DNA of 64,000 bases from Dictyostelium discoideum (Eukaryota): contig CM000151.3 in the NCBI GenBank assembly GCA_000004695.1, forward strand, positions 2,368,001 through 2,432,000, given 5' to 3'. Numbering within the stretch: the stretch's first letter is position 1; every line of letters begins with the position of its first letter. A model generated the notes under the pieces. The model was not told where the DNA came from, ran no database searches, and was given only the letters and a program-made list of their open reading frames with translations. Both the position numbers and the translations under genes were made by a program. Below are positions 32,265 through 64,000 of this stretch, one piece after another.

Positions 32265-32682
32265 ATGATCAGAAAACGAATACTATTATTAATTCTAATA
32301 ATAATAGTAATATTACAAATTTTTAGGGTTGAAGGAAATCCAGCAATTCAAATTTATGATGTTTCTAGTGAAGAATACTCATATAATAAATATCCAACAA
32401 ATACAAATGACAAATATTGTAATTTTTTTTTCTTAATATTTGTAACCGATACTTCAGATACTGGAGTTCAATTAAAAATAAAAACCAACGATTCAGACGC
32501 AACAATTTCAACACCAGCATTTAAAAATATTTCAAGTCAAGTTCTTCCAATTTATGTAAATACTAAATCACCAAATGATTATTCATTATTAATTACGGCA
32601 GAATATGATAATGATACATCAATTTATAGTAGTATTATAATTAATTATTCTTGTCAATGTTTGTATTGATTATTTTTTTAAG

Positions 32683-32741
<59 letters not shown>

Positions 32742-35700
32742 AAATAAATAATTAATTAAATAATTAAATAAATTAAATAGATATTCCACGAGAATCAATG
32801 AAAATAAATTTATATCATACTGGTAAATATAAGCATCCAATTTACCCATTTTCAACAATAATGTACATTACAGGATTAAAATACCCATTGGGTCAATTAC
32901 AAGTTGACAAACCGTATAATGTAAAAGTTGATAATATAAGGCCATTTGTCTATCATATTGGTGACGAATTTAATGGATTTATTAAACCAGATTTTAATAT
33001 ATCACTATGGTTCATGGATAGTTCAAATAATACTTATTCATTAAATTATACAATTCCAAGTTTAATTTATTCAAGTAAGTAATTATTGTTATTATTATTA
33101 TTGTTTTTATTATTATTATTATTTTAAAAATTAATATATTAAATTATAATTTTAAAAATTCAGATTCAAATGTAAAAGAAAAGGATATTACATTTAAAAT
33201 TTATCCTAATCAAACAAATGTTATAGAATTTGGATTTATTTGTCCACCAATTTATTCTATTACATTAAATGAAACAATTGGATTAAGCGACCCATTGTTT
33301 ATTAATGAAAATATAGGTTTAAATCCATGGGCATCTTATGAAATGCCAGGAAAAGGTACAACATTCCTTGGTCAAGTTTCTTCCGATTATTCAATTGGTG
33401 CTCAAATTAATGGCACCTTAACTACAATTTATTATCAATTTTTAAAGGTCTCATGTAAGTTTATTATTATTATTATTATTTTTTTTTATTATTGTTTATT
33501 TTTATTATTTTAAAAAATCATTTTTGTTAATAATTTTAATAATATTATTATTATTGTTTTTTAAATATATAGATAATATTGATAGAAAATTTCCATCTTT
33601 TCAAATTGATTATTCACCACCATTACCTTCACTTTCATCAATATTTTCAATTAAATTTAATTCAACTAAAAAATTTGATTTATTCAATTATTCAATTAGA
33701 TGGTTTGAAAGTTTTTCAAATAGTTATAAATGGCCTTTTGGTTTCGAAAGTGGTCATAATTCAAATTATTCATTCAAGTCATCATTTCTACAATCTGAAA
33801 TCTCTGTAAATCCCTACAACTCACTTTATTTCAATCAAGATCATTCTTTAACGCAAATTAGTAATCAACAAGGTAATTGTTTTTTTTTATTTTTTATTAT
33901 TATTTAATAAAATTATTATATTAATTAAAATAATTTTATTATAAATAATAGTTGTGGATATAAATACATTACCAATATTAGAATTAGAATCATTTAATTC
34001 TACTCATTTATATAATCAAGTTTATTTATTTAAGATTAAAATAAAACCAATTTATCAAAGTAAAGGGTACAGTACTTTTATTAAAATTAATGATAATGTT
34101 AATCAAGTATTAAGATATGACTCAATGCCTGATATCGAAAACAATATATATGAAACTGTTTTAAATTTTCATGAAGGTATATTAAATAGTTTAAATATTG
34201 GTGATTCTTATTCAAGACAATCTCAATTTTATAATCCATTTCAATATTATTCAATTGATCCACTTTTAAAACTTGATTTTAAATATTCTGATATGATTTC
34301 AGTTTTAATTGGTAATGTAACTTATTTAATAAATAACATTGATGTAACAAATAAATCAGTTGATAATATAATTTATTTCAATTATAATGGTACTCAAGAA
34401 CCTAAAGATGATACAATTAATTTCTCATTTTTAATTTTATCTCATGAGTTTAAAGTAACTGGAGTCGTAGATTATGATAATATTACAACTTCAATTTGGA
34501 ATTCAACAATTTCAAAATATCAAATTAAATTTACAGTTCCTGCAAATACTAGACCTGGTCCACTTGGTTTTGCTTTACTTTGTGGTTATTCAAGTTCATT
34601 AATAAGTGATTTCTTACCTTTATCTTCTCAATTAATTATTGAATCTAAACATTTCGATGAATATGGACCAATATTTAGTAATATTGAAAAAGTTAATTCA
34701 ACAAATGAATTTGGTTGGAAATTTACAATAGATGATCCAATTAATGGTTTTGATTATGCTGATATTATAGTTAGAGGTGAAATGGATAGTTCAACTTATA
34801 AATTCCATTTAACAACTCAAAATTTAACAAGAGGTGATAAATTTAATGGTGATTATCAAATTAATATAACTTTACCAAGTAAATGTGCATCTCAAAATTA
34901 TATTATCACACAAGTTAAATTATATGATACTCAAGGTTATTTAGGTGAATTTTCAGTATCCAGTGGATTTAATGGTATTAGAAATGTATTTATAAATTAT
35001 TTATCAGATCCAACAATAAATAAAGTATATAAAACATGTAGTGGTGAAAATGATGGTATCGATAGTTCACCACCAATTTTAACTTCATTCATACCAATAT
35101 TAAAACAAAATAGTGATGGTACTCAATACTTATCATTCAACTTTGAAGCAGTAGATATTGAAAGTGGTTTAAAAGATAAACAATATCCAATTGTTTATAT
35201 CCAAACAACAGATTTAAGAACACTTGAATGTGTATCATCTATTATTTCAATAAATGAAACAACTTCAACCTATAAATGCACTATCAATTTACCAAATGGA
35301 TTCGGATACAATTCAGATATTATTTTCAGTGTTTATGGATTCATTAATAATGGCGGTTATTATAGCGGATATTCAAGCGAATCACTAAATAGTTTATCTT
35401 TTATATATTCAATGAGCGATATATCCATAAACAAAGTAATACAAATTAATACCTGTAGCAAATTTGTATCTGGTGATAGCGAGTTATGGATAACAGGTAG
35501 AGGTTTCAATTCAACAAAACAACAAGTATATGTAAAATATTTTGGAGAACCTGGATTTAATCAAATAATAGTACCAAATAAAGTTTATTGGAGTGCAATG
35601 TTTATTAAAAATATTAAACCAACTGATAAACCATTCATTATCAAAGTTTCGGACTATCCACTCACATCAAATGAATTCACTGTTATTCCTATAGTTTATA

Positions 35701-36860
35701 ATTTTACGATTCCCTTAACACCAACAGAAACACCAACAGAAACACCAACAGAAACACCAACAGAGACACCAACACAAACACCAATACCTACATCATCACC
35801 AATACCAACGAATAAACCACAAACATGTTTAGGTGAACCAGTATGTGGTGGATCAAAACAAGGTTTTTGTTCATCAAGTGGATGTATTTGTTATCCACCT
35901 TGGATTGGTAATGATTGTAATTCACAAGTTATAATTATACCACAACCATCAACAAATACATCACAACCATCAACTGAATTACCAATTATAGAAAACAATA
36001 ATCAAACATCAAATAGTACAAATTATTTATTCAAATCATTGATTTCAATTGTATCATTAAGAGAATTAGATTTTAATTCAAATCAAGTTAATTTATATAC
36101 ATTTGATAAATGGATTTATACACCAATTAATAATATTAAAAGTCAATACTTTACAAGTATTCAAAGTGGTGATACAAAATCAACAAATACATTAACAACT
36201 AATATTACTGTAACTTTAGAATGGTTCAATCAAACGACAATCATTCAATTTGCAAATAATAATATAACAATGAATCCATCAAGTATTAAATATACAATTG
36301 AAATTACAGAATATAAATTTTTAAATCAATTAAATAGTCTTCAACTTGTAATGTCAGCATTATTCGAATCATCAAATTCCAAAGATACTTGTTCATTAAA
36401 AGAATTTGGAGATACAAGTGATGGTGATAATTCAAACTTCTTTAAAATTCAAATTGATGACCATTCACTTTATGGTAGATTCATTAAAAGAGCAATCATC
36501 GATTCAAAAGTATCTTCAATTGAAAATCAATTATTAGATTCAAAAATGAACTCAATTCAAACATCATCAGTATCACAATCATTCATTGGTATTACAATAC
36601 CAAATTATAAACAATCAATAATTATTGATCCAGACTTTTCAGTATTAGTAGATAGTAAACCAGTATCAAATAATGATAATAATTCAATTTGTACATCAAA
36701 TAAATCAAAACTAACAAGTGCTCAACTCGCTGGTATTATTATTGGTTCCGTTGCTTTTGCCACTGTAGTTATTGTATCAGTTGTTTACTTGGTCGTGAAA
36801 AACAGAAAATCAGATTTATTCCAAAGAAAAGTACAAAACAAATTACAAAAAATGAACTGA
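32265..36860 (+). CDS. Type I membrane glycoprotein family, copy A, about 1395 aa. It has a signal peptide, a large N-glycosylated ectodomain, a (TETP)n mucin-like hinge, an EGF-like Cys knot, a stalk, a TM helix and a short basic tail. Exons: 32265..32658, 32781..33074, 33164..33454, 33573..33872, 33952..36860.
   Basis: E1: MIRKRILLLILIIIVILQIFRVEG...NYSCQ + T, then a GTTTGT donor. E2 after AAATAG: YIPRESMKINLYHTGKYKHPIYPFSTIMYITGLKYP...LIYSS + A, then GTAAGT. E3 after AAATTCAG: NSNVKEKDITFKIYPNQTNV...EMPGKGTTFLGQ...KVSC + T, then GTAAGT. E4 after ATATATAG: YNIDRKFPSF...YKWPFGFESGHNSNYSFK...NQQG, then GTAATT. E5 after AATAATAG: VVDINTLPILELESFN...TPTETPTETPTETPTETPTQTPIPTSSPIPTNKPQTCLGEPVCGGSKQGFCSSSGCICYPPWIGNDCNS...LAGIIIGSVAFATVVIVSVVYLVVKNRKSDLFQRKVQNKLQKMN*. 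All exons are phase 1. There are many N-x-S/T sequons. Confidence 0.75.
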
Positions 36861-37346
36861 TCAGTTAATTTAATTCAAATATTCTAATTAAAAATCTTGG
36901 AAAATAAAAATTATTATTTTTTTTATTAATTTTTAAAAATTTCTTTATGCATTTACTTATTATTTATTTGTCTTTTCTTATGTATATGTAAAAAAAAAAA
37001 TTTCTACTGTAGTGGTTCAACAAAAAAAAAATTAAAAACAAATTAATTAGGTTTACCCACACATTTATTATTTATTTGAAATTATTAAAATTTTTCCAAT
37101 ATTTAAAAATGATGATGTTTAAATTTTTTTATTTTTATTGTTGTTGAAGTGTTAATAAATATTAAACCATTCCTAATGTCATAGTGTATAGATAGATTTA
37201 TATTCTCTCCAATCTTTGGCACAGGATCGTTTGGTAGGTTTATCAGGTTTAATAGTTTTAACAGTTCAACATGTTTAACAGACTGGAAATAAAAAATCTT
37301 CCAATTGAAATTTATTTATTTTATTTTATTTTATTTTATTTTGTTT

Positions 37347-39060
37347 TTATTCATTAAGTTTCATTTCATATAATTTAGCAATATCATCTTCATAATCAGA
37401 AGCTTTTTCAGCAGATTTTTCACAATTAACTTCATTTACATCTTCACCCTTTGAATTTTTAGGTTCAATTTGTTGAACCACTTGAGTCAACTCATCAAAT
37501 TCATCGCTGATTGTTGAGTAACCTTCAACAAATTCTCGTTCACAAGAATTGGAATCATCGAGTAAATTATCAAAGAATTGACCATCGATAAAAGTGTTGA
37601 AAAGTTTTAAACAGTTTGTTTCTTTGGTATGTTTTTTGACAATATTTAATATTTTGGCAATGCCCTCCAAATAGTAATAAAAAGAATTTTTTCGAGCTTT
37701 AGATGCTGAATAATTCTGTTTCAAACATTCAAGACAATCGTTCTGTATTAAGTAAGGCAATTGCAGAGTTGAGAGTATAATTGATTTAATGTCAACTAGT
37801 AATGATGTTGATCTTTTAGAACAAAACATTTGGACATTAGGTAATATCACTGGTGATTCATTCCAAAATAGAGATAGTGTACTCAATTAAGGTATAGTAT
37901 TACATTTGATAGAAATATTGAAAACTCATTCAAAGAAATCACTAGTTTCAAATGTAGCTTGGGTCATTAAAAATCTATGTCGTGGTGTACCACGTACTGA
38001 ATTTAGACTCGTTAAGCCACTATTACCATCAATAAAGAGTTGCTCTTAACTTGGCATAAAGAAGCTGATGTCATATCAGAAGCATTGTGGGCATTATCAT
38101 GCTTGACCGAATCAACCAATGAAGAGCATGAGATCTTTGACAATATTATATCTATGGGATTGGTTGAGGTTATCATTGAAATCATTTTCGAATCAGATCA
38201 AAAAGATTGTATTAAATACGGATTCAATACAATTGGTAATATGCTTTCAGGTTTCTATGACGTTATAGAGTATTTGTTACAATGTAATGTATTGAAAGTG
38301 TTTCCTAAAATCTTATCATCACCATCAGAAGCATTGGTGACGTGAGGTTATTATTTTTTATTATATATTACCAATGGTCCAACAGATCAAGTCCAAAGAG
38401 TCATAGACGAATGTTTGCTTAAAAGAGCTATTGAAACCGGTAAAAACTCATCGATCAATTTAAGAACAAAACTTGAAGCCACCTGCGCTATTGCTAAGGC
38501 TATCTGTGGTGCCTCAACTCTGCAATTGCCTTACTTAATACAGAATTATGAATTTCATTCCCTACAATATAATTTGTATGTTTTGAAGATCCTGATGCAA
38601 CATTTGTTAATGCCCATGATGCTTCGTATTGAATTGAAGTATCTGTTTCATCAACTAAATATCTATGTAAAATTAGTACTAACCCTGAACTAATAACTCT
38701 ATCAATTTGTGGATTATTATCTTTTTTTTATAATAAATAATAAAAAAAAAAAAAAAAAAGTCATTTAAAAAAAAAAAGTCAATTTAAAAAAAAAAAAGTC
38801 AATTAAAAAAAAAAAAAAATAAAAATAAAAAACTTACCATCAGATAAAATTTCTCTAACACATTTAACTGCTTCATATCTTTCTTGTCTATTTGGTGATG
38901 AAATATTTTTAAAAATTAAATAAAATTTATCATTTTGAGTATATATATATAATTAATAAAAATTAATTATTTAAACAAATTGAAAAAATAAAAAAATAAA
39001 AAAAACTTACTAAGGTATTTTGATGTAATGATTCATCGATATGGTGTATGTGTCAAAATA
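37347..39060 (-). pseudogene. Importin-alpha (karyopherin alpha, armadillo-repeat) paralogue, disrupted. The N-terminal exons and ARM1-2 are on the minus strand (39060..38540). A 733-bp internal block (37774..38506) is inverted, so its ARM3-9 code sits on the plus strand and carries nonsense and frameshift lesions. The C-terminal region is on the minus strand (37740..37347).
   Basis: Minus strand 38900-38540: NISSPNRQERYEAVKCVREILSD | NPQIDRVISSGLVLILHRYLVDETDTSIQYEASWALTNVASGSS (compare importin-alpha PPIDxVIQAGVVPRFVEFL...LQFEAAWALTNIASGTS). Plus strand 37774-38506: SIIDLMSTSNDVDLLEQNIWTLGNITGDSFQNRDSVLN*GIV...LVSNVAWVIKNLCRGVPRTEF...DVISEALWALSCLTESTNEEHEIF...IKYGFNTIGNMLSG...ITNGPTDQVQRVIDECLLKRAIETGKNSSINLRTKLEATCAIAKAICGAS. 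These are ARM signatures (NLCRG, ACWALSYL, RAIGNI) with TAA and TGA stops and a 1-nt deletion. Perfect 33-bp inverted duplications lie at 37741-37773 and 38507-38539 (TTCTGTATTAAGTAAGGCAATTGCAGAGTTGAG and its reverse complement). Confidence 0.5.
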
Positions 39061-39169
39061 TTTTTAAAATTATGGATTTAAAAAAAAAAAAAAAAAAAAT
39101 TATTTGAAAATATTTTTTTTTTTTTTTAAATATTAAATTTTTTATTTTTAAATCTTAATAGGAGTTGAT

Positions 39170-39490
39170 AATATAATTTATTTCAATTATAATGATACTC
39201 AGGCCACAGTGATCTTCAGCTACATTCTCACTTTTTATTTTAAATAGTAGTAATACAGATATGATCTAATATATATTTCAATAGTTTCAAAAAATCAAAT
39301 TAAATTTACAGTTCTTACAAATACTAGACCTGATCCACTCAGTTTCTTTTTAATTAGTACTTATCAATCTTCAATAACAAATGATATGTTTCCTTTATCA
39401 TCACAACTATTAATTGTTTCTAAACATTTCAATGAATATGGACCAATATTGACTATGGCGGTTATTATAGCGGATATTCAAGCGAATCAC
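39170..39490 (+). pseudogene. Fragment of a family ectodomain exon (E5), 5'- and 3'-truncated, with an internal deletion of about 690 bp.
   Basis: 39170-39420 matches B 42880-43165 (VDNIIYFNYN..T...KYQIKFTVLTNTRPDPLSFFLISTYQSSITNDMFPLSSQLLIVSKHFNEYGPI) with substitutions. At 39445 it jumps directly to the B 43862-43900 equivalent (GGYYSGYSSESL), then stops in TAA. There are no flanking exons. Confidence 0.5.
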
Positions 39491-39977
39491 TTATAAAGGA
39501 AATTCCTTTATATAACAAAGGAAAATAATAATGAAAAAAAAGATATTAATATTTAAAATTAATTTAATATTTTTTATCATTTTTATTATAATATCAACAA
39601 ATAATTTTATTTTATTATTCTCTGTGTATTGGTGATTTTTTTTTTTTTTTTTTTTTTTTATAAATTAAAATTCATTGTTCCATAATTTAAATTAAATAAA
39701 GAAATTTATTGTGCATTTTAAAATTAAAATAAATAAACATATTTATTATTTTTTATTGTTTATTGTTTATTGTTTATTACTTTAAAATTAAAATTCTTTA
39801 TTTGATAATATAAATATAACTACTTTACATTTAAATAAACCTATTGATTGATTTTTGTTTAATCCTTTAAATTAAAACTCTTTATTTGGTAATTTAATTA
39901 AAAATGAATAACTGCTTTATATTTTTTTATATTATATTATTTTTTTTTTTAAATTTTTTTATTTTTTTTCTTTGTTT

Positions 39978-40011
<34 letters not shown>

Positions 40012-40532
40012 TTTTTTAAAAAATATATTTTACTAAAATTTTTCAAAATTAATTATTAAAAAAAGGCACAATAGAAAATTCAATAACCAAAATTTTTTTT
40101 TTTGATTTTTTTTATTATATTTTTTTATTTTTTTATTTGGCTAAATTATTACTAAACAAAAAATGGTATACATTTGTAGAGGTTGTAATCAACCTAAAAA
40201 AGAACAATGTCAATGCAAACAACTACTAGCAACATTAGGAACACAACAAAAACTAATACAAGCACAACAACAACTAATACAACAACAAAATCCAAACACA
40301 AATCATATTATGCCAAGTCTTCAATCTGATGAATTCACAACTAATACAACAAAATCCAAACACAAGTCATATTATGCCAAGTCTTCAAGCTAATGGATTT
40401 ATAACAACTAAACAAGGTATTTTGGACTAAATAAACAAAATCTTCAACAAATAAAACATAAATGATTTTATTCCAGATCCAACTCTACCAAACAAATTTT
40501 ATGTTAGTATTAGAAATTAAATAAATTAAACA

Positions 40533-40580
<48 letters not shown>

Positions 40581-40809
40581 GTACCATTTATAATGTGTTT
40601 GTTGGGATCAAAAAAAAGAAATAAAAAATAAAAACAATGAAATTTTGTTGTGAGGTAGTCTTGAAATTCAAAAAATATTTTTTTTAATTTTTTTTTTAAA
40701 ATATCTTTTTATAAATATCTTTTTATAAATATCTTTATCAAATCGTAAAAAAAAAAATGGGGAACGTTTTTTTTTTTTTTTTTTTTATTTTTTTTTTTAA
40801 AAAAAAAAA

Positions 40810-43800
40810 ATGATAAAGAAAATTTTATTAATAATCCTAACATTGGTGATAATAAATAGCTTTTCAACAATAAATAATTTAATAATTGGGGTTGAAGGAC
40901 AGTTTCAATTGTATGATATTACAAATCAAGAAGAAGGTGCTTATAATAGATACCCAGATTCAACAAATCAAAAAATTTGTTCATATGTTTTTTCGATTGC
41001 AATAGTTGATTACTCGAATAGTGGGGCAACTTTGAATGTTTTCACCAATGATACAGATGCAATGGTCTATCAAATCATTAGGAAAGAATATGGAGGAATT
41101 GCCACAGTTATAGTTAAAAATAAAACACCAAATACTTATACATTATTAATAAATGCAACATTGCAAAATGGTCAAAATATTTATAAGAATATCTCAATAA
41201 CTTATTCTTGTGAATGTTTGTATATAAAATTTAAAATTAAAAAAACAAAAATAAATAATTAATTAATTTCAATACCAATTTTATATAGATATCCCTCGAG
41301 AATTGATGAAGGTCAATGTTTTAACAAGTAACAATTATAAATTTACAATTAATCCTTATACAACATTAATACACTTTACAGGTTTAAAATATCAAATATC
41401 TTATCTAAATGTTTCAAGTCCTTCTTGGATAAACATAAATAATTTTTATTCAAATTTATTATATGTTAGTGTAGATTTTAATAAATATAATTTTGTACCA
41501 GAGTCTAATATATCAATACTTTTCTTGGATAGTTCAGATCAACAATATACTGTGAATATTACAATTCCTTTTTTTTATTTTTCAAGTAAGTATAATAATT
41601 AAATTTAAAAAAAAAAAAATAAGATATTAAAATTATTATTATTATAAGAAATGAATGTAGAAGAAAAGGATATTACATTCAAGATCTATCCAAACCAAAC
41701 CGATGTTACAGTACTTGGAGTTAATTGTTCACCAGTTTACTCTATTACATTAAATGAAACCATTGAATATGATCCATTATTTATTGAAGATGTTTCACGT
41801 CGTATGCCTACTCCATCATATGAAATACCAGGAAAAGGTACAACATTCATTGGTTATGTTTATACACAATATTCTATTTTCGCACAAATTAATAACTCAT
41901 TAACAACAATTTATAGTAACCCAAATTTAAATGTTTCAAGTAAGTTTTTTAAAATTAAATTCAATTACTTTTTAATATATACATATATCAAAGATTAATT
42001 TCTATTGACATTATTTAAAAAAAAATGAATAGAAAACTTTAATTTTACATTTCCAAATGTCATTGTTGAACCAGTATCATTACCTTTAATATTAAACTCA
42101 ACAATGTTTTCATTTGGGTTCACTTCAAGTTTTCAGTATGCAATTTTTCCATTTTATTTTAGATGGAATTTAGGTTTTCAATATATCTTTAGTTGGCCAT
42201 TTGGGTTTGAAAGTGGTCAAAATTCAAACTATTCTTTAAAAGTATCATTTTTAAAACCCACGTATTCGCCAAACAATTTTGGTTTATTGACCTTTAATAA
42301 TGAAAATTTTATTATTCAAATAGACAATAGTAAGTATATATACATATAATCATTAATATTCTAATATACATATATAATCATTAATATTCTAAACTACTAC
42401 TGAATAACACACACACACACCCCACACACAAACAAGTACTAACATTAAAAAATATTTTTAAAAATAGCGATAAATTCATCATTACTACCATTAGAATTAG
42501 AATCATGTAAAGTTATATACCTTTTTGAACAATTTCATTTATTAATAATTAAAATAAAACCAACATATAAAGAGATTGGTTATAATCTTTTCATTCAAAT
42601 TAATGATGATGCAAATGCAATATATAGACAAGAATCATTGGTAGATGCTGAAAATAATATATATGAAATTGTTTATGATTTTAAAGGGCGTGGATTTTCA
42701 GTTTTATCTATTGGAGATTCAACTTTTAAAAAGAGTCAAGTTTATTATGTAAATAGTTATTTTTCAATTAATCCATTTTCAGTTATAGATTATAAAGCTC
42801 CAACAATATTACCTGTTTTAATAGAAAATATTACATTTTTAAAAAATTATATTGATGTGGCAAATAAATCAGTTGATAATATAATTTATTTCAATTATAA
42901 TGGTACTCAAGCCCATAGTGATCCTTCAGCTTCATTCTCACTTTTTATTTTAAATAGTAATACCACAGAATCTAATATAGTTTTCGATAGTTTAAAGTTT
43001 GCAACTTGGAATTCAACAATTTCAAAATATCAAATTAAATTTACAGTTCTTGCAAACACTAGACCTGGTCCACTCAGTTTCTTTTTAATGTGTGGTTATC
43101 AATCTTCAATAACAAATGATATGTTTCCTTTATCATCACAACTATTTATTGTTTCTAAACATTTCGATGCGTATGGACCAATATTTAGTAATATTGAAAA
43201 AATTAATTCACCAAATGAATTTGGTTGGAAATTTACAATAGATGATCCAATTAATGGTTTTGATTATGGTGATATTATAGTGAGAGGTGAAATGGATAGT
43301 TCAACTTATAAATTCCATTTAACAACTCAAAATTTAACAAGAGGTGATAAATTTAATGGTGATTATCAAATTAATATAACTTTACCAAGTAAATGTGCAT
43401 CTCAAAATTATATTATCACACAAGTTAAATTATATGATACTCAAGGCTTTTCAGGTGAATTTTATGTAGTTGGTGAAATGGATGGTATTAAAAATGTATT
43501 TATAAATTATTTATCAGATCCAACAATAAATAAAGTATATAAAACATGTAGTGGTGAAAATGATGGTATCGATAGTTCACCACCAATTTTAACTTCATTC
43601 ATACCAATATTAAAACAAAATAGTGATGGTACTCAATACTTATCATTCAACTTTGAAGCAGTAGATATTGAAAGTGGTTTAAAAGATAAACAATATCCAG
43701 TTGTTTATATTGAAACAATAGAAGTACAAACACTTGAATGTGTATCATCTATTATTTCAATAAACGAAACAGCTGCAACCTATACATGTACTATCGATTT

Positions 43801-45313
43801 ACCAATAGGATTTGGATACAATTCAGATATTATTTTCAGTGTTTATGGATTCATTAATAATGGCGGTTATTATAGCGGATATTCAAGCGAATCACTAAAT
43901 AATTTATCTTTTATATATACAATTAATAATATAACTTTTAATAAAGTAATACAAATCACAAAATGCAGTAAATTTAATTCATTTGATAGCGAGTTATGGA
44001 TAACAGGTAGATGTTTCAATTCAACGCAACAAGTATATGTAAAATATGAAGGAGACTCAAGCTTTAATCAAATAGTACCAACTACAGTTTATTGGAGTGC
44101 AATTTTTATTAAAAATATTAAACCAACCGATAAACCATTCATTATCAAAGTTTCAGACCTACCACTCACATCAAATGAATTCACTGTCAATCCAATAGTT
44201 TATAATTTTATAGATCCAACACCAACACAAACACCAATACCTACATCATCACCAATGCCAACGAATAAACCACAAACATGTTTAGGTGAACCAGTATGTG
44301 GTGGATCAAAACAAGGTTTTTGTTCATCAAGTGGATGTATTTGTTATCCACCTTGGATTGGTAATGATTGTAATTCACAAGTTATAATTATACCACAACC
44401 ATCAACAAATACATCACAACCATCAACTGAATTACCAATTATCGATAACAATAATCAAACATCAAATAGTACAAATTATTTATTCAAATCATTGATTTCA
44501 ATTGTATCATTAAGAGAATTAGATTTTAATTCAAATCAAGTTAATTTATATACATTTGATAAATGGATTTATACACCAATTAATAATATTAAAAGTCAAT
44601 ACTTTACAAGTATTCAAAGTGGTGATACAAAATCAACAAATACATTAACAACCAATATTACTGTAACTTTAGAATGGTTCAATCAAACGACAATTATTCA
44701 ATTCGCAAATAATAATATAACAATGAATCCATCAAGTATTAAATATACAATTGAAATTACAGAATATAAATTTTTAAAACAATTAAATAGTCTTCAACTT
44801 GTAATGTCAGCATTATTCGAATCATCAACTTCCAAAGATACTTGTTCATTAAAAGTATTTGGAGATACAAGCGATGGTGATAATTCAAACTTCTTTAAAA
44901 TTCAAATTGATGATCATTCACTTTATGGTAGATTCATTAAAAGAGCAATCATCGATTCAAAAGTGTCTTCAATTGAAAATCAATTATTAGATTCAAAAAT
45001 GAACTCAATTCAAACATCATCAGTATCACAATCATTCATTGGTATTACAATACCAAACTATAAACAATCAATAATTATTGATCCAGACTTTTCAGTATTA
45101 GTAGATAGTAAACCAGTATCAAATAATGATAATAATTCAATTTGTACATCAAATAAATCAAAACTAACAAGTGCTCAACTCGCTGGTATTATTATTGGTT
45201 CTATTGCTTTTGCCACTGTAGTTATTGTATCAGTTGTTTACTTGGTTGTGAAAAACAGAAAATCAAAAAAATTCCAAAGAAAAGTACAAAAGAAATTACA
45301 AACAATTAACTGA
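40810..45313 (+). CDS. Type I membrane glycoprotein family, copy B, 1378 aa. Exons: 40810..41215, 41289..41585, 41649..41939, 42033..42329, 42468..45313.
   Basis: E1: MIKKILLIILTLVIINSFSTINNLIIGVEGQFQLYDITNQEEGAYNRYPDSTNQKICSY...ITYSCE + T|GTTTGT. E2 after TTATATAG: YIPRELMKVNVLTSNNYKFTINPYTTLIHFTGLKYQ...FYFSS + A|GTAAGT. E3 after TTATAAG: KMNVEEKDITFKIYPNQTDV...EIPGKGTTFIGY...LNVSS + A|GTAAGT. E4 after GAATAG: KNFNFTFPNVIVEPVSLPLILNSTMFSFGF...WPFGFESGQNSNYSLK...QIDN + A|GTAAGT. E5 after AAAAATAG: TINSSLLPLELESC...IDPTPTQTPIPTSSPMPTNKPQTCLGEPVCGGSKQGFCSSSGCICYPPWIGNDCNS...LAGIIIGSIAFATVVIVSVVYLVVKNRKSKKFQRKVQKKLQTIN*. All the TTG 'M' ORFs in the track are internal to these exons. Confidence 0.75.
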
Positions 45314-46214: not shown

Positions 46215-46635
46215 ATGATAAAGAAAATTTTATTGATAATCCTAACATTGGCGATAATAAATAGCTTTTCAACAATAAATAATTTAATAATTGGGGTTGA
46301 AGGACAGTTTCAATTGTATGATATTACAAATCAAGAAGAAGGTGCTTATAATAGATACCCAGATTCAACAAATCAAAAAATTTGTTCATATGTTTTTTCG
46401 ATTGCAATAGTTGATTACTCGAATAGTGGAACAAATTTGATGGTTTTCACCAATGACACAGATGCAACAGTCTCTCTAATCAATAAGAAAGAATATGGAG
46501 GAATTGCCACAGTTATAGTTAAAAATAAAACACCAAATACTTATACATTATTAATAAATGCAACATTGCAAAATGATCAAATTATTTATAAAAATATCTC
46601 AATAACTTATTCTTGTGAATGTTTGTATATAAAAC

Positions 46636-52796: not shown

Positions 52797-55296
52797 ATGA
52801 ATAAAAATTTTGTTTTGTATTTATTTTATTTTATTTTTTTAAATTATTGTAATAGTCAATCATTGAACATAACAGATATTTCAGAAGCAAATTCGTATAT
52901 AGTATATCCTGATTCATCAAATTCACAAACTTGTTCTTTTAATTTTAAATTTTTTATCCAAACTGTTAATATAATAAATTATTCTGGAAGTTCATTTTCA
53001 TTTTTATTATCTAAATCTTTTGTTTTGGATACATCATCATTTATAACTAAAGATGGTCATGCATATGCATCTTTTAATGGTTTAAATTTGCCATTAGGAA
53101 ATGATAGTCTAATATTAACATCAACTTATGAAAATTCAGATGGTATTAAAATTCAACAAAATTATTCAATATCTTATAAATGTGAATGTTTGTATTTGCC
53201 CCATTAAATTAATTAATTTAATATTTTAAAAAATTATTTAAATTGCTAATTTTTTTTTTTAAAAGTAATTGAATTTAATTCTTTGGGTTATAAGGTTTTA
53301 TTAACAAATAATTTTAAAAAATCTAAATCAGGAATGAATGGAATTATTCAATTTACAGGATTAAAAAATAAACTAAAATCATTAAGTTCGAGTGGGGGAA
53401 TTTTCAATGTCAAACCAACATTTCCAAATAGTTTTTCATTTTCTGATTATCAATTTCAAAATTTAACAAAAGAAAATATAATTTCACTTTTATTTAATAA
53501 TGGTAATAATATTACAGTAAAATTTCCATCATCATTTAGTTCATGTAGGTATTTTTTTTTTATTTTTTTTTGAACTTGCACTTTTCATTTTTTTTTTTTA
53601 TTTTTTTATTTTTTTTTATTTAAAAATTTCAAAAAATAATTAATCCTCGTTTAATTTTATTATTTTTTAGATTATAATGTTGATGAAAGCAATTCAAAAG
53701 TTGTAATTTATCCAAGTGAAAGCACAAATATAATTGAATATGGATATGACAATTCTCCACTTTATTCAGTTACAATAAATAAAACCAGTGTTGATTATGA
53801 ACCTTATATTCAAGTTAATAATGGGTTTAGCAACTATTCTCAAATAACACCAATATATCAAAATGACAAAACTGTAACATATTTAGGTCAACTTATTAAT
53901 TCAGCACCTTCAAAATTATCAATTTATTCAGAGTTTAATAATTCTTTAATAAAAATCTATGAAACACCAATTTTAAATATTACAAGTAAGTATTTTAAAA
54001 TATATCTTTATAAATGAATTTTAATAGTAATGATAATAATTTTTATTATTATAATTTTATTTAGAATTTAGTAAAGAACCTTTTGTTCCAAATCCATTTA
54101 TTGTTACATACTTTAATAGTGATGGTATTTTTTTATTAAATTCATCAATGTTTACAATTACCACATCAAATCAATTTAATTTCTTAACAACAACCTATTC
54201 ATTTGGTTTATTCACAAAAGATTTTCAATGGCCATTTGGTTTTGGAAGTGGTAATAATTTTAATTATAATGTATCCGCTTCATTTTTGAGATACAAGGCT
54301 CTCATTAGTTCACCAAAAGTTTTTACTGTTGATAAAACAAATCTAATCAACATTAATTCAAATATAAGTATGTATATAATTTATTATAAATAAATTTAAA
54401 ATAATAATTAATAATAATAATATTTAAATTTTTTAATATTAATATATATTTTTATTATATTATTATTATTATTATCATTAAAACATAAACTGTTTTTTTT
54501 TTAAAAAAAAAAAAAAAATTATAGTTGCACCAACTGTAAATGCACCAATTCTTTTAAAATTTGAATGGGTTCATTTATTTTCAGGAAATTATTTATTAAA
54601 ATTTAGGGTAAAAGATAATGGATATGAAGCATTTGTTGGTATTGGTGATGTCAATACAATTGCATTAAGATATGAATCAATGATAGATAGTGAAAGTATA
54701 GGTGATGAAATTGTATTTGCAGCAGTTATAGATACATACAGATATCCAATTGACAAATTTATTGTATTCGATAGATTGGGACAAACAGAAACATATTCAA
54801 TCGGTCAATATTATTCAGTTAATCCACTTTTAAAAATTGATTCATTTTATGAAAATAATAATAAAAATAATAATAATAATAATAACTTATTACTTATTAA
54901 TAATATTACATTTTTTAATAATTTTATCGATATAATAAATAAATCAGTTGATAATGTAGTTTATTTTACATATAATGGAGGTAGAATGGATAATGATGAA
55001 AAACCAATTGGATTTATGTTAATGGACGTAGTTACATTAGTAAAGAATAGTAAATACCATTTCAACAGTTCAACACTATACTTTTCAACTTGGAATTCAA
55101 CAATATCAATGTATCAAATTAAATTTAAAATACCTGCAAATACCCAACCTGGTCATATTCCATATAGATTCTTTATCAACTCTTATTCAACACCTTTAGA
55201 TAGTGAATTCTTACCATCATCTGCACAACTATATGTAACATTATCAAGTAAGTATCTATAATATAGGTATAAATACAATTTATCAATAGTTTTCAA

Positions 55297-55378
<82 letters not shown>

Positions 55379-57625
55379 GAATCTACAGATTTCGATGGAT
55401 ATGGACCAATATTTAGTAATATTGAAAAGGTTAATTCAACAAATGAATTTGGTTGGAAATTTACAATAGATGATCCAATTAATGGTTTTGATTATGCTGA
55501 TATTATAGTTAGAGGTGAAATGGATAGTTCAACTTATAAATTCCATTTAACAACTCAAAATTTAACAAGAGGTGATAAATTTAATGGTGATTATCAAATT
55601 AATATAACTTTACCAAGTAAATGTGCATCTCAAAATTATATTATCACACAAGTTAAATTATATGATACTCAAGGTATTGGTTGCTACTTTTCAGTATCTG
55701 AATCATTTGTAGGTGGTGGTGTTAATAACCCATTTATAAATTATTTATTAGACTCAACAATAAATAAATTATATAAAAAGTGTAGTGGTGAAAATGATGG
55801 TATCGATAGTTCACCACCAATTTTAACATTATTTACACCACAAGTAGCTATTCCTGCAGATGGACATATGGAAGTATATTTCTCATTTGAAGCAACTGAT
55901 TACGAAAGTGGATTAAAAGATCTTCAATATCCAATGGTTTACGTTGAAGCAATTGAATTTCAAATATTTGAATGTGAAACAATTATTAAATCAAAGAATA
56001 TCACCTCTGCAACCTATCAATGTTACGTTTACTTACCAAGAGGTGTATTGTACACTTCAGAAATTACATTCAGTGTTTATGGATTAATTAATAATGGTGG
56101 TTGTTATGGTGGTTATTCAAGCGACTCACTAAGAATTCTATTCCCGTATAAGTTTTCAATGAAAGCAGTATCATCAGGACTTGCTAAAAGGTTAGATATC
56201 TATAGAGTTTCTCAAATTACAACAAGTGGTGGCGAATTATGGATAATAGGTGCTGGTTTCTTTTCTTCAAATCTTGTAGTATTAATTAAATATTATGGTG
56301 AATCAACATTTACACAAACATCAATACCAACTATAAGTTATCCAAATGCAATGTTAATCAATGATGTCAAACCAACTGATAAACCATTCATTATCAAAGT
56401 ACAAGAAGCTTTCTTTTCAAATGAATTCACTGTTTATCCATTAGTATTTGATATTCGTTTTGTACCACCAATTCCAACAGAATTACCAACAGAATCCCCA
56501 ACACCAAATCCATCATCATCATCTTCTTCAATAGACTCGTCATCGTCAACACCTACATCATCACCAATACCAACGAATAAACCTCAAACATGTTTAGGTG
56601 AACCATTATGTGGTGGATCAAAACAAGGATATTGTTCATCAAGTGGATGTGTTTGTTATCCACCTTGGATTGGTAATGATTGTAATTCACAAGTTATAAT
56701 TATACCACAACCATCAACAAATACATCACAACCATCAACTGAATTACCAATTATCGATAACAATAATCAAACATCAAATAGTACAAATTATTTATTCAAA
56801 TCATTGATTTCAATTGTATCATTAAGAGAATTAGATTTTAATTCAAATTAAGTTAATTTATATACATTTGATAAATGGATTTATACACCAATTAATAATA
56901 TTAAAAGTCAATACTTTACAAGTATTCAAAGTGGTGATACAAAATCAACAAATACATTAACAACCAATATTACTGTAACTTTAGAATGGTTCAATCAAAC
57001 AACAATCATTCAATTTGCAAATAATAATATAACAATGAATCCATCAAGTATTAAATATACAATTGAAATTACAGAATATAAATTTTTAAATCAATTAAAT
57101 AGTCTTCAACTTGTAATGTCAGCATTATTCGAATCATCAACTTCCAAAGATACTTGTTCATTAAAAGTATTTGGAGATACAAGCGATGGTGATAATTCAA
57201 ACTTCTTTAAAATTCAAATTGATGATCATTCACTTTATGGTAGATTCATTAAAAGAGCAATCATCGATTCAAAAGTATCTTCAATTGAAAATCAATTATT
57301 AGATTCAAAAATGAACTCAATTCAAACATCATCAATATCACAATCATTCATTGGTATTACAATACCAAATTATAAACAATCAATAATTATTGATCCAGAC
57401 TTTTCAGTATTAGTAGATAGTAAACCAGTATCAAATAATGATAATAATTCAATTTGTACATCAAATAAATCAAAACTAACAAGTTCTCAACTCGCTGGTA
57501 TTATTATTGGTTCCGTTGCTTTTGCTGCTGTCGTTGTTGTTGCAGCTTCTTATTTTATTATAAAAAAGTGGAAAGACGATAAATTTGTAAAAACATTTAA
57601 TAGAAAATTAAAAAAACTATCATAA
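52797..57625 (+). pseudogene. Type I membrane glycoprotein family, copy D. Its exons E1-E4 are divergent. It has an extra intron splitting E5, and a single in-frame TAA at 56849-56851 where the paralogues have CAA. That gives either a recent pseudogene or a truncated secreted variant lacking the TM. Exons: 52797..53187, 53266..53544, 53671..53985, 54065..54367, 54525..55247, 55389..57625.
   Basis: E1: MNKNFVLYLFYFIFLNYCNSQSLNITDISEANSYIVYPDSSNSQTCSF...SYKCE + T|GTTTGT. E2 after TTAAAAG: LIEFNSLGYKVLLTNNFKKSKSGMNGIIQFTGLKNK...SS + T|GTAGGT. E3 after TTTTTTAG: YYNVDESNSKVVIYPSESTNIIEYGYDNSPLYSVTINKT...ILNIT + A|GTAAGT. E4 after TTATTTAG: KFSKEPFVPNPFIVTYFNSDGIFLLNSSMFTITTSNQFNFL...QWPFGFGSGNNFNYNVS...NI + A|GTATGT. 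E5a after AATTATAG: IAPTVNAP...QLYVTLSS + A|GTAAGT. The intron carries (ATT)24. E5b after TCTACAG: NFDGYGPIFSNIEKVNSTNEFGWKF...FNSN*VNLY... continues in frame after the stop to ...SSQLAGIIIGSVAFAAVVVVAASYFIIKKWKDDKFVKTFNRKLKKLS*. Confidence 0.5.
55290..55380. repeat. (ATT)n microsatellite, about 30 units, inside the copy-D-specific intron.
   Basis: Direct reading. It is flanked by a GTAAGT donor (55248) and a CAG acceptor (55386-55388). Confidence 0.9.
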
Positions 57626-58554
57626 TTAACAAATAAAAAATACTGTGTATTAATTTTTTAAAAGTTTATTCCTTTTTAAAAGGAGTAGTTTAAATAAAGA
57701 TTTTTAAATAATTAATTTTTTCTATGGAATTATTTAAATAAAATTTTTAAAAAAAATATATTTAACTAGTGGATTTTATTTATTTTTAAATTGTTTTAAT
57801 TGTCTTAGAGTTTTTTTGAATTACTTTTTTTAAAAAATAAGAAAGAAACTGATACAATAACAACACAACAGATAATTCATTTGAAAAGAATTTTGAATTT
57901 TCTTGTACTTTGATAATGAATGGTTTTTCAGTTGGTTTGACATCATTAATTAACATTGTATTTGGATAAATTATAGTAGGTATTGATGTTTGTGTAAAGG
58001 TTGATTCACCATGATATTTAATTAAGACTACAAGATTATTTCATTTAATTTTTTTGTATCTACTCTATGCAAAATAGTATTTAAAAAAAAGAATTGATGT
58101 TAAGTTGGTGGTAAATTAAAATTTCTTTGTATGCTGGAAATTGAGATTCTCTAACTTTTTAATTTGAAATTATAATTGGTATAATAATAAAACTTGGGAA
58201 ACTTAATTTTAATTATCTATATGTTGAATGAATACTTTAACATCAGCCTCACTTAAATACTTCCCAGAGGTGGTAAATTTGGTGTTGATTGCAATTAATT
58301 ATTAAAAAAAATTTTTTTTTTTTTTTTTTAAAAAATATTTACTAACATAATCCACTTTTCAATTTCATAAACCAATTTCATTTTTTTAAATCTGACAACA
58401 CTGTTTAAAACTTTTTGATTGCCAAACTCTTTTTCTATATGGTTACCAAAAATCAAAGTGAGTGGTCCATGATTTTTTTAACATTATGGGTACAGTTTAT
58501 TTTGAGCATTAAAATAACAGCAGTAATGTACTCGAATTTGAAACCAATTAATTT

Positions 58555-61440: not shown

Positions 61441-61906
61441 AATGAAACCTAAAAGAATGAATGCTCATTTTCTTCTAGAGGTATTATATTTTATTATTTT
61501 AGATTGAATATAAATATTTGTACTAATTTTTTTTTTTTTTTTTTTTTTTTTTTTCTCTAATTAAAAACAAAAAACTGTTCATTGGATTTTATCGCCAAAA
61601 CCTAAACTTCTGGTCTGAAAAAAAAAAAAATCAATACCAAAAGGTGAAAAAAGAAAAAATAATAAAAAAAAAAAAAATAATAAAAAAAAAAAACAAATAA
61701 AAAAAAAAAATAAAAAAAAAAAGTGTTTGATTTGAAAAATTTAAAAAAAAATATTAAAAAGTGTTTGGTTTGGCCAATCCGCACAATAAAAAAAAAAAAG
61801 GGGGGAAATTTAAATAGAGTTTTTTTAATTTTCTATTAAACATTTTAACAAATTTATCATCTTTCCACTTTCTTATAAAAAAAGTAACTACAATTTATTA
61901 AGCTGA

Positions 61907-64000
61907 TCAGTTCATTTTTTGTAATTTACTTTGTACATTTCTTAGGAATAAATCTGATTTTCTGTTTTTCACAACCAAGTAAACAATTGATACAATAACT
62001 ACAGCAGCAAAAGCAACGGAACCAATAATAATACCAGCGAGTTGAGCACTTGTTAGTTTTGATTTATTTGATGTACAAATTGAATTATTATCATTATTTG
62101 ATACTGGTTTACTATCTACTAATACTGAAAAGTCTGGATCAATAATTATTGACTGTTTATAATTTGGTATTGTAATACCAATGAATGATTGTGATATTGA
62201 TGATGTTTGAATTGAGTTCATTTTTGAATCTAATAATTGATTTTCAATTGAAGATACTTTTGAATCGATGATTGCTCTTTTAATGAATCTACCATAAAGT
62301 GAATGATCATCAATTTGAATTTTAAAGAAGTTTGAATTATCACCATCGCTTGTATCTCCAAATTCTTTTAATGAGCAAGTATCTTTGGAATTTGATGATT
62401 CGAATAATGCTGACATTACAAGTTGAAGACTATTTAATTGATTTAAAAATTTATATTCTGTAATTTCAATTGTATATTTAATACTTGATGGATTCATTGT
62501 TATATTACTGTTAGCGAATTGAATGATTTTTGTTTGATTGAACCATTCTAAAGTTACAGTAATATTAGTTGTTAATGGATTTGTTGATTTTGGATCACCA
62601 CTTTGAATACTTGTAAAGTATTGACTTTTAATATTATTAATTGGTGTATAAATCCATTTATCAAATGTATATAAATTAACTTGATTCGAATTAAAATCTA
62701 ATTCTCTTAATGATACAATTGAAATCAATGATTTGAATAAATAATTTGTACTATTTGATGTTTGATTATTGTTATCGATAATTGGTAATTCAGTTGATGG
62801 TTGTGATGTATTTGTTGATGGTTGTGGTATAATTATAACTTGTGAATTACAATCATTACCAATCCAAGGTGGATAACAAATACATCCACTTGATGAACAA
62901 ATACCTTGTTTTGATCCACCACATACTGGTTCACCTAAACATGTTTGAGGTTTATTCGTTGGTATTGGTGATAATGGGGGTAATAATGTTGGTGTAGGTG
63001 TTAAAGAAGAAGATGATGATGATGATGATGATGAATCAATTGAAGTTGAATCGTCAGATGACAATTTAAAAGTCAATGGTAAAACATTGAATATTTTGGA
63101 CTTTTTGTTATTTGATTGATCAAATGCTTGTATAATGAAAGGTTCATCCGTTGGTTTAATATCTTCTATTAGAATAGCACTTGAATAAACTGTTGTTGGT
63201 ATTGAAATTTGTGTAAAATTTGAATCTCTATTATATTTTATATTTATTCTAATTGATAAATTTAAACCCCTTCCGACAATCCATAATTTACCACCACTAG
63301 ATGTGATTTGAGATACTCTAATGATTTCAATCTTTCTCAAAATTCCAATTTGAGTCATTGAATATTTAAATGATAAATTATTTAATGCGTCACTTGAAAA
63401 ACCACTATAATAGCCACCATTATTAATGAATCCATAAACACTGAATATAATATCTGATTTGTAACCAAATCCAGTTGGTAATTCAATTTCACATGTATAA
63501 TTTACAGTTGTTTTTGTTTTATTTTGAATTTGAGCTACACCTTGAATCACTTGTAAATCGATAGTTTGAATGTAAACTATTGGATATTGTTTATCTTTTA
63601 AACCACTTTCATTATCAGCTGCTTGAAAATCAAATGATATTATTTGATCATCATTATTTGTTCCAACTTTTTTAACAGCATTAAACCAATTTAAAATTGG
63701 TGGTGAACTATCGATACCATCATTTTCACCACTACACTTTTTATATAATTTATTTATTTTTGAATCTGATAAATAATTTATAAATGGATTTCTAATACCA
63801 CCACTAAATGATTCAGATACTGAAAATCTACAAGCATTACCTTGAGTATCATATAATTTAACTTGTGTGATAATATAATTTTGAGATGCACATCTACTTG
63901 ATATAGTGATATTAATTTGATAATCACCATTAAATTTATCACCTCTTGTTAAATTTTGAGTTGTTAAATGAAATTTATAAGTTGAACTATCCATTTCACC
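61907..64000 (-). CDS. Type I membrane glycoprotein family, copy E: the 3' portion of its large terminal exon on the minus strand, in tail-to-tail orientation with copy D. The 5' end lies beyond the window edge.
   Basis: An open frame of about 695 codons runs to the edge: ...GEMDSSTYKFHLTTQNLTRGDKFNGDYQINITISSRCASQNYIITQVKLYDTQG...SSSSSSSSSSLTPTPTLLPPLSPIPTNKPQTCLGEPVCGGSKQGICSSSGCICYPPWIGNDCNS...LAGIIIGSVAFAAVVIVSIVYLVVKNRKSDLFLRNVQSKLQKMN*, with the stop at 61907-61909. From the hinge to the TM it is nucleotide-near-identical to A/B/C/D. Confidence 0.75.
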   Translation of the reverse strand, partial: GEMDSSTYKFHLTTQNLTRGDKFNGDYQINITISSRCASQNYIITQVKLYDTQGNACRFSVSESFSGGIRNPFINYLSDSKINKLYKKCSGENDGIDSSPPILNWFNAVKKVGTNNDDQIISFDFQAADNESGLKDKQYPIVYIQTIDLQVIQGVAQIQNKTKTTVNYTCEIELPTGFGYKSDIIFSVYGFINNGGYYSGFSSDALNNLSFKYSMTQIGILRKIEIIRVSQITSSGGKLWIVGRGLNLSIRINIKYNRDSNFTQISIPTTVYSSAILIEDIKPTDEPFIIQAFDQSNNKKSKIFNVLPLTFKLSSDDSTSIDSSSSSSSSSSLTPTPTLLPPLSPIPTNKPQTCLGEPVCGGSKQGICSSSGCICYPPWIGNDCNSQVIIIPQPSTNTSQPSTELPIIDNNNQTSNSTNYLFKSLISIVSLRELDFNSNQVNLYTFDKWIYTPINNIKSQYFTSIQSGDPKSTNPLTTNITVTLEWFNQTKIIQFANSNITMNPSSIKYTIEITEYKFLNQLNSLQLVMSALFESSNSKDTCSLKEFGDTSDGDNSNFFKIQIDDHSLYGRFIKRAIIDSKVSSIENQLLDSKMNSIQTSSISQSFIGITIPNYKQSIIIDPDFSVLVDSKPVSNNDNNSICTSNKSKLTSAQLAGIIIGSVAFAAVVIVSIVYLVVKNRKSDLFLRNVQSKLQKMN

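Follow-up and report, generated by a model that had tools for sequence, protein, structure and literature searches.

Here we analyze a 64,000-nucleotide (nt) stretch of chromosome 2 of Dictyostelium discoideum AX4 (hereafter the window; contig CM000151.3 of GCA_000004695.1, positions 2,368,001 to 2,432,000), which contains an array of five paralogous genes for type I membrane proteins at window positions 32265–64000. Copies A to D are on the + strand and copy E is on the − strand. An original prediction, made from the letters of the DNA alone, proposed this arrangement, and spliced gene models and protein matches confirm it. The array is flanked by SRP14 on one side and by a gene for a protein of 675 amino acids (aa) on the other. 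The window has a G+C content of 16–31% and belongs to the duplicated part of AX4 chromosome 2, a duplication described in PMC12745789.

Copy A (32265–36860, +) consists of five exons (32265–32658, 32781–33074, 33164–33454, 33573–33872, and 33952–36860, the last including the stop codon) separated by four phase-1 introns. Its spliced model is 1395 aa long, as is the gene call in GCA_054883475.1, an independent long-read AX2-like assembly with 99.85% identity to the window over 24.5 kb. The gene calls of this assembly for B, C, and D are 1378, 1380, and 1378 aa, respectively. Copy B (40810–45313, +; exons 40810–41215, 41289–41585, 41649–41939, 42033–42329, and 42468–45313) gives a spliced model of 1378 aa, the sequence of which is exactly that of the AX4 protein XP_644342.2. 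The spliced model of copy C (46215–50740, +; exons 46215–46620, 46724–47023, 47095–47385, 47491–47787, and 47892–50740) is 1380 aa long and translates exactly to XP_644341 (P0004). Copy D (52797–57625, +) threads exactly onto XP_645075.2 (P0070; Q558J3) and has six real exons (52797–53187, 53266–53544, 53671–53985, 54065–54367, 54525–55247, and 55389–57625), to which the AX4 model adds a seventh. Copy E (64000–61907, −) is cut by the window end, so that its 3′ 697 codons are in the window; this part is 100% identical to residues 712–1408 of XP_644336 (P0010). The start of E is ~2.76 kb past the window end, and the full gene, threaded in locus L005, has six exons, all phase 1.

The original prediction considered that the locus might be unannotated. 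It is annotated: the AX4 RefSeq proteins of B, C, D, and E all bear the name ‘EGF-like domain-containing protein’. B, C, and E have two AX4 GenBank accessions (EAL numbers) apiece, and D has a second near-identical AX4 entry, XP_644339. The two chromosome 2 duplicates of D are one residue apart, with F versus C at position 12 in the signal peptide (P0070 versus P0011; window 52830–52835), and the window copy is the duplicate that encodes Q558J3/XP_645075.2. A literature search for the family, its accessions, and Dictyostelium gene conversion found no paper on the family or the array. The family is thus annotated yet uncharacterized in the literature searched, and the array is a previously undescribed case of a known process.

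The introns of all copies are phase 1, as predicted. The predicted five-exon architecture holds for A, B, and C, and fails for D and E, which have six exons owing to an extra phase-1 intron. In D, this intron (55248–55388, +) is 141 nt long, contains (ATT)n, and is located at the start of the DUF7035 domain; the full E gene in L005 carries an intron of 179 nt at the same codon. One of the sequence motifs proposed for the family, YSCECLY, includes read-through into the donor of intron 1, and the spliced protein reads YSC(Q/E)YIPRE. The prediction also missed that B and C are 85–100% identical along the whole gene including the introns, with a period of 5.4 kb. C is thus a recent whole-gene tandem duplicate of B, and the array comprises four old lineages (A, B/C, D, and E), not five.

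A pairwise nucleotide comparison of the genomic copies, with the identity profile taken from sliding windows and the limits from maximal-scoring segments, delimits two tracts in exon 5 that are shared by all copies. Tract 1 spans 277 nt in A (34661–34937, +) and corresponds to the first ~92 codons of DUF7035. Its counterparts are at 43172–43446 in B, 48595–48871 in C, and 55399–55675 in D (all +), and at 64000–63839 (−) in E, where it is cut by the window end. There are 1–5 mismatches per pair in this tract, and the synonymous divergence (dS) within the AX4 genome is 0.02–0.10. Tract 2 spans ~975 nt in A (35786–36760, +) and contains the end of a Pro/Thr/Ser linker, the EGF-like domain DUF7949, the ComC supersandwich domain, and a juxtamembrane stretch. 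Its counterparts are at 44239–45201 in B, 49666–50640 in C, and 56551–57525 in D (all +), and at 62972–62001 (−) in E. There are 15–25 mismatches per pair over about 963–1028 nt, corresponding to 97.4–98.5% identity in all five copies, in agreement with the near-identical module of ~1.0 kb that was predicted before the transmembrane helix. However, the prediction restricted homogenization to the stalk. The restriction to part of the gene is correct, and the second tract of 277 nt in DUF7035 was missed.

The identity of the tracts extends to synonymous sites, as had also been claimed. Mismatches at third codon positions amount to 2–4% within both tracts versus 35–38% outside for the pairs A–D, A–E, D–E, and C–D, and to 3.4% versus 20% for A–B (Fisher p 1e-15 to 1e-46). 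Between copies, the 3′ module does not show the synonymous divergence of the sequence outside the tracts. Between the tracts, D and E are 52–85% identical to the other copies, and A is 81–100% identical to B/C; in D and E, ~850 nt of diverged sequence separate tract 1 from tract 2. The intergenic flanks are unalignable (~50% identity), and the transmembrane helix and tail are copy-specific in D, consistent with the prediction. The low identity predicted for exon 1 is observed as well, being 41–43% at the aa level for A versus B/C and 23–29% for the remaining cross-lineage pairs (A/B/C versus D/E, and D versus E). Family members outside the array are only 76–78% identical in tract 2 at the protein level.

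Copy D carries an in-frame TAA (56849–56851, +) within tract 2, at a position that is CAA in A and B. In the AX4 and AX2 models of D, the stop codon is removed by a 72-nt in-frame ‘intron’ (56781–56852, +), and the protein models P0011, P0070, and P0069 all omit 24 codons around it. Because the same stretch is coding in every other copy, the ‘intron’ seems to serve the annotation as a way around a nonsense allele.

We compared the array at the DNA level with the syntenic loci of D. citrinum (L002), D. cf. discoideum (L003), and a tropical ‘D. discoideum’ isolate (L004), the assembly of the latter being assigned to the isolate by divergence only. The D. citrinum locus contains SRP14 followed by A-type, B/C-type, and D-type genes. 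In the D. cf. discoideum locus, one A-type gene is followed by two B/C-type genes with a transposase between them. In the tropical isolate, the A-type gene precedes B/C-type genes, of which two are in the locus and a third is inferred from gene numbering. The gene models of the orthologs W_A and cf1 were obtained by exact threading. We calculated dS from a codon alignment of exon 5. In tract 2, dS among paralogs of one genome is 0.037–0.060 for the five AX4 copies, 0.043–0.098 for three D. citrinum copies, and 0.026 for the two from D. cf. discoideum. Between species, it is 0.24–0.30 for D. discoideum versus D. citrinum and 0.10–0.13 for D. discoideum versus D. cf. discoideum, values that match those of the flanking genes (~0.33–0.38 and 0.09–0.10, respectively). 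In the upstream part of exon 5, the order is reversed, with orthologs (A–cf1, 0.13; A–cit1, 0.34) closer to each other than paralogs (0.39–0.80, with A–B at 0.39 and A–D at 0.79). Two D. citrinum paralogs have 100% protein identity in tract 2, yet are 88–90% identical to the D. discoideum copies.

Neighbor-joining trees of the separate segments are incongruent in the same way. In the upstream part of exon 5, the orthology clades have 100% bootstrap support. In tract 2, each species forms a clade with 100% support, including D, E, and the D-type gene of D. citrinum. In tract 1, the two D. citrinum genes tested group together (100%), D. discoideum and D. cf. discoideum group together (100%), and the two D. 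cf. discoideum genes form a pair at 73%. In the region between the tracts, cit1 groups with cit2 (98%), and the A and B/C genes of D. discoideum and D. cf. discoideum are set apart from D. citrinum (98%), a grouping that appears to reflect older exchange between A and B/C. Therefore, tracts 1 and 2 were homogenized independently in D. citrinum. Tract 2 was clearly homogenized in D. cf. discoideum too, and tract 1 is grouped by genome there with weaker support. The ~660 N-terminal residues keep an orthology older than these species.

The variation left within tract 2 is itself mosaic. The AX4 copies differ at 38 sites, of which 12 are informative and support 8 of the 10 possible copy pairings, and 37 of the 66 pairs of informative sites fail the four-gamete test. 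Moreover, dS in tract 2 is 0.09 between A and its ortholog in the tropical isolate and 0.04 between A and B, indicating that homogenization continued after that split. Unequal crossing-over does not explain this pattern, and the process is thus gene conversion: E is homogenized although it is inverted, and ~850 nt of diverged sequence remain between the tracts in D and E. Altogether, the contrast of dS within and between species, the incongruent trees, and the four-gamete failures bear out the recurrent gene conversion that was predicted, and strongly support ongoing interlocus conversion of two exon 5 stretches among all five copies, including the inverted E and the nonsense-bearing D.

A Pfam search with the proteins of A, C, D, and E identifies, above the gathering cut-off of 27 bits, DUF7035 (PF23034; expectation value E 1e-35 to 1e-38) and DUF7034 (PF23033; E 8e-20 to 3e-28). 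The EGF-like domain DUF7949 (PF25820; E about 1e-14 to 1e-15) is identified as well, and the ComC supersandwich domain ComC_SSD (PF22933; E 5e-12 to 5e-18) lies between it and the transmembrane helix. All four domains score well above their cut-offs. DUF8390 (PF28405) is listed in the precomputed annotations of database proteins, including those of C and E. A total of 64 homologs were found, almost all in Dictyostelium species. The proteins belong to the annotated family of ‘EGF-like domain-containing proteins’, apparently restricted to Dictyostelium, with the order DUF7035–DUF7034–DUF8390–DUF7949–ComC_SSD. The single-exon translations of E1, E2, and E4 of copy A have no Pfam match, and a profile search of the PDB by sequence found no relative at E≤0.01. 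The original prediction suggested a tgr-like family with IPT/TIG domains or a psi-like family with PA14 domains. Pfam finds neither IPT/TIG (PF01833) nor PA14, either in the exon translations (E≤1) or in the spliced proteins (E≤0.01). Membership in the tgr (lag) family is rejected on this ground, the fold being Ig-like only generically, and membership in the psi family is rejected for want of a PA14 domain.

The sequence is that of a type I membrane protein, with a hydrophobic N-terminus and a hydrophobic segment (LAGIIIGS...) followed by a KNRKS tail; a helix is at residues 649–694 of the E model. Each ectodomain contains 28–35 N-x-S/T sequons, in accordance with the predicted N-glycan sites. 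The AlphaFold model of the ectodomain of a D ortholog (P0035, 1023 residues) is all-β, with ~nine sandwich domains, a predicted local distance difference test (pLDDT) of 84.6, and a predicted template modeling score (pTM) of 0.81. The exon ends fall at residues 117, 210, 315, 416, and 657 of P0035, which are in inter-domain linkers, suggesting that exons 1–4 each encode exactly one β-sandwich domain. For the C-terminal 695 residues of E, the model (pLDDT 78) comprises a disordered linker, a module of EGF size, a sandwich of ~200 residues, and a transmembrane helix. The predicted layout is therefore a signal peptide, ~nine β-sandwiches, a Pro/Thr/Ser linker, an EGF-like domain, a galactose-mutarotase-like supersandwich, a transmembrane helix, and a short basic tail, and tract 2 would correspond to the EGF-like domain plus the supersandwich beside the membrane. 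A Foldseek search of the PDB with the 1023-residue ectodomain model yields only generic multi-sandwich matches (mastigoneme, CEA, titin, cytokine receptors, protocadherins, and TEP1), with template modeling scores (TM-scores) ≤0.25.

The distal exons, which the original prediction called hypervariable, are old paralogs. Between lineages, dS of exons 1–4 is 0.7–0.9 and the nonsynonymous divergence (dN) is 0.45–0.8. Among orthologs of the B/C lineage, the ratio of nonsynonymous to synonymous differences per site (pN/pS) in exons 1–4 is 0.94–1.02, which is not distinguished from neutrality (binomial p 0.8–0.9). The ratio in the proximal half of the same lineage is 0.27–0.43, and the excess of the distal over the proximal part has Fisher p of 0.04 (B–C), 9e-6 (B–cf2), and 2.5e-7 (C–cf2). 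In the A lineage, pN/pS of exons 1–4 is 0.39–0.52 and significantly below 1, a value that is based on two orthologs and does not include exons 1–4 of D. citrinum cit1. The flanking genes have pN/pS of 0.2–0.4. The B/C lineage is consistent with fast or relaxed evolution, a pattern that does not show diversifying selection or polymorphism. Between A and the tropical isolate, exons 1–4 have dS of 0.06 and dN of 0.02, and the largest flanking open reading frame (ORF) has dS of 0.078 and dN of 0.030; there is no excess divergence of A over the flanking genes in this comparison. The copy number of B/C-type genes is 1 in D. citrinum, 2 in AX4, 2 in D. cf. discoideum, and 3 in the tropical isolate. 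Tropical D. discoideum isolates were prioritized as likely cryptic sister species, and some were flagged as possible cryptic species (PMC12745789). We considered the tropical isolates as a polymorphism sample and rejected them, as their flanking genes differ from AX4 by dS of ~0.08.

The edges of the tracts suggest how conversion may be limited. On the 5′ side, tract 1 starts 10 nt past the D/E-specific intron, in the first residues of DUF7035, and tract 2 starts at the end of the Pro/Thr/Ser linker, which differs in length and sequence in every lineage. On the 3′ side, tract 2 stops at the transmembrane helix in D and, in the other copies, at the stop codon or the 3′ flank. Heterologies that would block the extension of heteroduplex are thus located at three of the four edges. 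In the proposed mechanism, a break would be repaired using a paralog as template, resulting in conversion, and heteroduplex extension would be stopped at these three ends: at the 5′ end of tract 1 by the intron present in D/E and absent in A–C, at the 5′ end of tract 2 by the length-variable linker, and at its 3′ end by the unalignable transmembrane helix, tail, or 3′ flank. A and B/C may still be similar enough for conversion to reach the intervening region as well.

Several observations weigh against conversion or against this account of its limits. The 3′ edge of tract 1 is within DUF7035, where there is no indel or intron. Heterology alone does not explain every edge; at this end, the limit may also reflect a historical donor boundary or selection against conversion beyond it. 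G+C at third codon positions is not raised in the tracts (0.04–0.14), so that the usual by-product of biased gene conversion is absent; GC-biased conversion is rejected for this reason. A Sawyer-type permutation test of the longest concordant run at polymorphic sites is not significant for D pairs. The tracts are nearly monomorphic, which makes the test unsuited, and we replaced it by third-position counts, cross-species dS, segment trees, and the four-gamete test. Finally, only three further genomes enter the DNA-level comparison.

Other accounts of the near-identity deserve weighing against gene conversion. Extreme purifying selection on the protein, combined with a function at the nucleotide level such as RNA structure or an embedded element, could keep the copies alike without exchange. 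Tract 2 does have the lowest dN/dS of the gene (0.1–0.2 between species), and no part of the proteins is better conserved across the family than the supersandwich and EGF-like domains. However, the synonymous sites of tract 2 are free to change, diverging between species at the rate of the flanking genes, the paralogs cluster by species, and D retains the tract despite the stop codon inside it. Purifying selection alone is thereby excluded, and the combined account is exceedingly improbable. The non-zero dS within genomes (0.03–0.10), which places the last homogenization at a time that is not very recent, and the relic fragments described below, which show a history of rearrangement in the array, would suit a single recent event per lineage, such as an unequal crossover or a one-time replacement of the 3′ module, after which the copies diverged in the ordinary way. 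Such an event is decidedly unlikely, given that homogenization took place separately, within nearly identical limits, in three lineages for tract 2 and, clearly, in D. citrinum for tract 1, that the informative sites of tract 2 back conflicting copy pairings and often fail the four-gamete test, and that one unequal crossover cannot homogenize an inverted gene or two tracts around 850 nt of diverged sequence in D/E. The assembly of AT-rich Dictyostelium repeats is difficult, and the window is in a duplicated region, so that collapsed or mis-joined repeats might in principle give false identity; but 24.5 kb of the array recur in the independent long-read assembly, the pattern is seen again in three other genomes, and the copies differ at 38 specific sites of tract 2, making an artefact next to inconceivable.

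The remaining alternative concerns what the array is for. The original prediction took the pattern as typical of a polymorphic self/non-self recognition or adhesion locus, in which the distal domains would be under diversifying selection. In its favor are the pN/pS of exons 1–4 of the B/C lineage compared with the proximal half, the variation of B/C-type copy number from 1 to 3 among genomes, the predicted ectodomain, a string of Ig-like sandwiches like that of adhesion molecules, and the presence of a gene with a Dicty_CAD adhesion domain between C and D. On the other hand, a pN/pS of ~1 in B/C fits neutrality, the ratio in the A lineage is 0.4–0.5, and A diverges from the tropical isolate no more than the flanking genes. 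The sole close relative, the AX2-like assembly, is almost identical to the window and does not constitute a within-population sample. In addition, there is no IPT/TIG domain and no paired receptor–ligand gene arrangement like that of tgrB1/tgrC1. A recognition locus of this kind is therefore unlikely. By contrast, gene conversion of the tracts, with old distal domains, edges limited by homology, and a membrane-proximal module of common function, is the best overall explanation and probably correct.

Gene conversion limited to the membrane-proximal part of arrayed surface proteins is a well-known process, and the array is a well-delimited case replicated across species. Segmental gene conversion was reportedly described in vertebrate clustered protocadherin genes by Noonan et al. 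in 2004 (Genome Research). Like the array, the clustered protocadherins are tandem single-pass surface proteins built from strings of β-sandwiches, and conversion homogenizes the part of the ectodomain next to the membrane, together with adjoining parts, whereas the distal binding domains remain diverse. However, protocadherins share constant cytoplasmic exons by splicing, whereas each array gene carries its own complete 3′ module with a stop codon. The two are unrelated in sequence, and the fold matches are generic (TM-score ≤0.16). A further difference is that homophilic recognition is shown for protocadherins.

Concerted evolution by gene conversion is also described for the CEA/CEACAM family (PMC7042247). 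These are likewise surface glycoprotein paralogs more alike than their age predicts, with some members or segments escaping conversion. CEACAMs are mammalian proteins of the immunoglobulin superfamily, whereas the array has two sharply bounded tracts in all copies, recurring in sister species. Closer to the organism, interlocus gene conversion was suggested for Dictyostelium tgr genes (bioRxiv 10.1101/2025.10.22.684067). The tgr family, which includes the allorecognition genes tgrB1/tgrC1 (PMC12745789, bioRxiv 10.1101/2025.10.22.684067), resembles the array in its clustered genes for large type I surface proteins, birth-and-death evolution, pseudogene relics, and signs of interlocus conversion. 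The families differ in that tgr proteins have IPT/TIG domains, which Pfam does not find in the array proteins, and in that tgr conversion is proposed to create diversity whereas array conversion removes diversity from a defined module. A further distinction lies in the extreme polymorphism and the role in kin discrimination that are shown for tgrB1/C1. The array family is unmentioned in both tgr papers, in which the term ‘EGF’ occurs 0 times (PMC12745789 and bioRxiv 10.1101/2025.10.22.684067).

Dictyostelium ComC is the namesake of ComC_SSD (PF22933; E 1e-12 to 1e-18 in the array proteins), the membrane-proximal supersandwich domain that the array proteins share, a likeness drawn via the Pfam domain and not via the ComC sequence. 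ComC acts in developmental cell–cell signaling. The array proteins are set apart from ComC as a family of their own by their N-terminal ~1000 residues (the exon 1–4 domains, DUF7035, and DUF7034). The glycosylated lysosomal membrane protein (GLMP), an accessory subunit of the transporter MFSD1 (PDB 8r8q_B), shows a fold-level resemblance only, with 10% sequence identity; it is lysosomal and does not have the long distal ectodomain of the array proteins. This resemblance offers a lead, not a finding, for a role of the module in binding a partner in cis. We suggest, with less confidence than for conversion itself, that the constant membrane-proximal module has one function in all copies, possibly docking in cis to a shared membrane partner or binding a glycan, and that the divergent distal domains may provide distinct binding specificities.

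Two relics in the array show birth-and-death turnover. A decayed B/C-type fragment (39163–39491, +) is 82% identical to B 42871–43185 and contains three stop codons and an internal deletion. It is followed by 37 nt identical to A 35350–35386, B 43860–43896, and C 49284–49320. An inverted D-type relic (57776–58037, −) consists of a part (57867–58037) that is 89% identical to D 56270–56434 and then a tail-like piece, without tract 2. The spacer between A and B (36861–40809), which is 3.9 kb in AX4 versus 0.45–1.2 kb in D. citrinum, D. cf. discoideum, and the tropical isolate, contains the B/C-type relic and an Armadillo-repeat-like ORF (38040–38345; Arm, E 6e-7). The small Dicty_CAD gene between C and D (51091–51327, −; cell–cell adhesion domain PF05720, E 3.5e-29) is a 100-aa gene in the AX2-like assembly. 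The two B/C-type copies of D. cf. discoideum are separated by a DDE_Tnp_4 transposase gene and a gene of 571 aa (L003 15582–20937), indicating that the array is also an insertion site for mobile elements.

Outside the array, the window contains tandem flavin amine oxidase paralogs at 17615–18904 and 20686–21975 (+; PF01593, E 1e-45 to 1e-47), which are ~3.07 kb apart and 88% identical in their 5′ parts. The stretch at 1–2821 (−) has G+C of 0.31 and a strong GC skew of 0.575. Both are due to long arrays of 9- and 12-nt periodic repeats that encode low-complexity runs in a protein kinase gene (Pkinase, E 2e-25).

The array provides a clean natural example of gene conversion in a haploid, genetically tractable organism, with tracts delimited to ~20 nt that recur in sister species and edges that coincide with protein-domain, intron, and linker boundaries. 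It also exposes an annotation problem, in that a nonsense codon of D is concealed in the AX4 model by an ‘intron’ of 72 nt that is in frame. Nothing known is overturned, and a recognition role is not supported by the data so far. It is doubtful, though conceivable, that the array is a second cell-surface system of social amoebae for recognition or adhesion, independent of tgr, in which a uniform supersandwich ‘adaptor’ would dock one shared partner or glycan and four old and one recently duplicated ectodomains would give specificities that in part evolve fast. If this were true, the array would be a protist analogue of the clustered-protocadherin design. For the family itself, conversion marks the EGF-like domain plus supersandwich as the part that needs to be the same in all copies, which leads to the hypothesis that this module may serve a shared partner or ligand.

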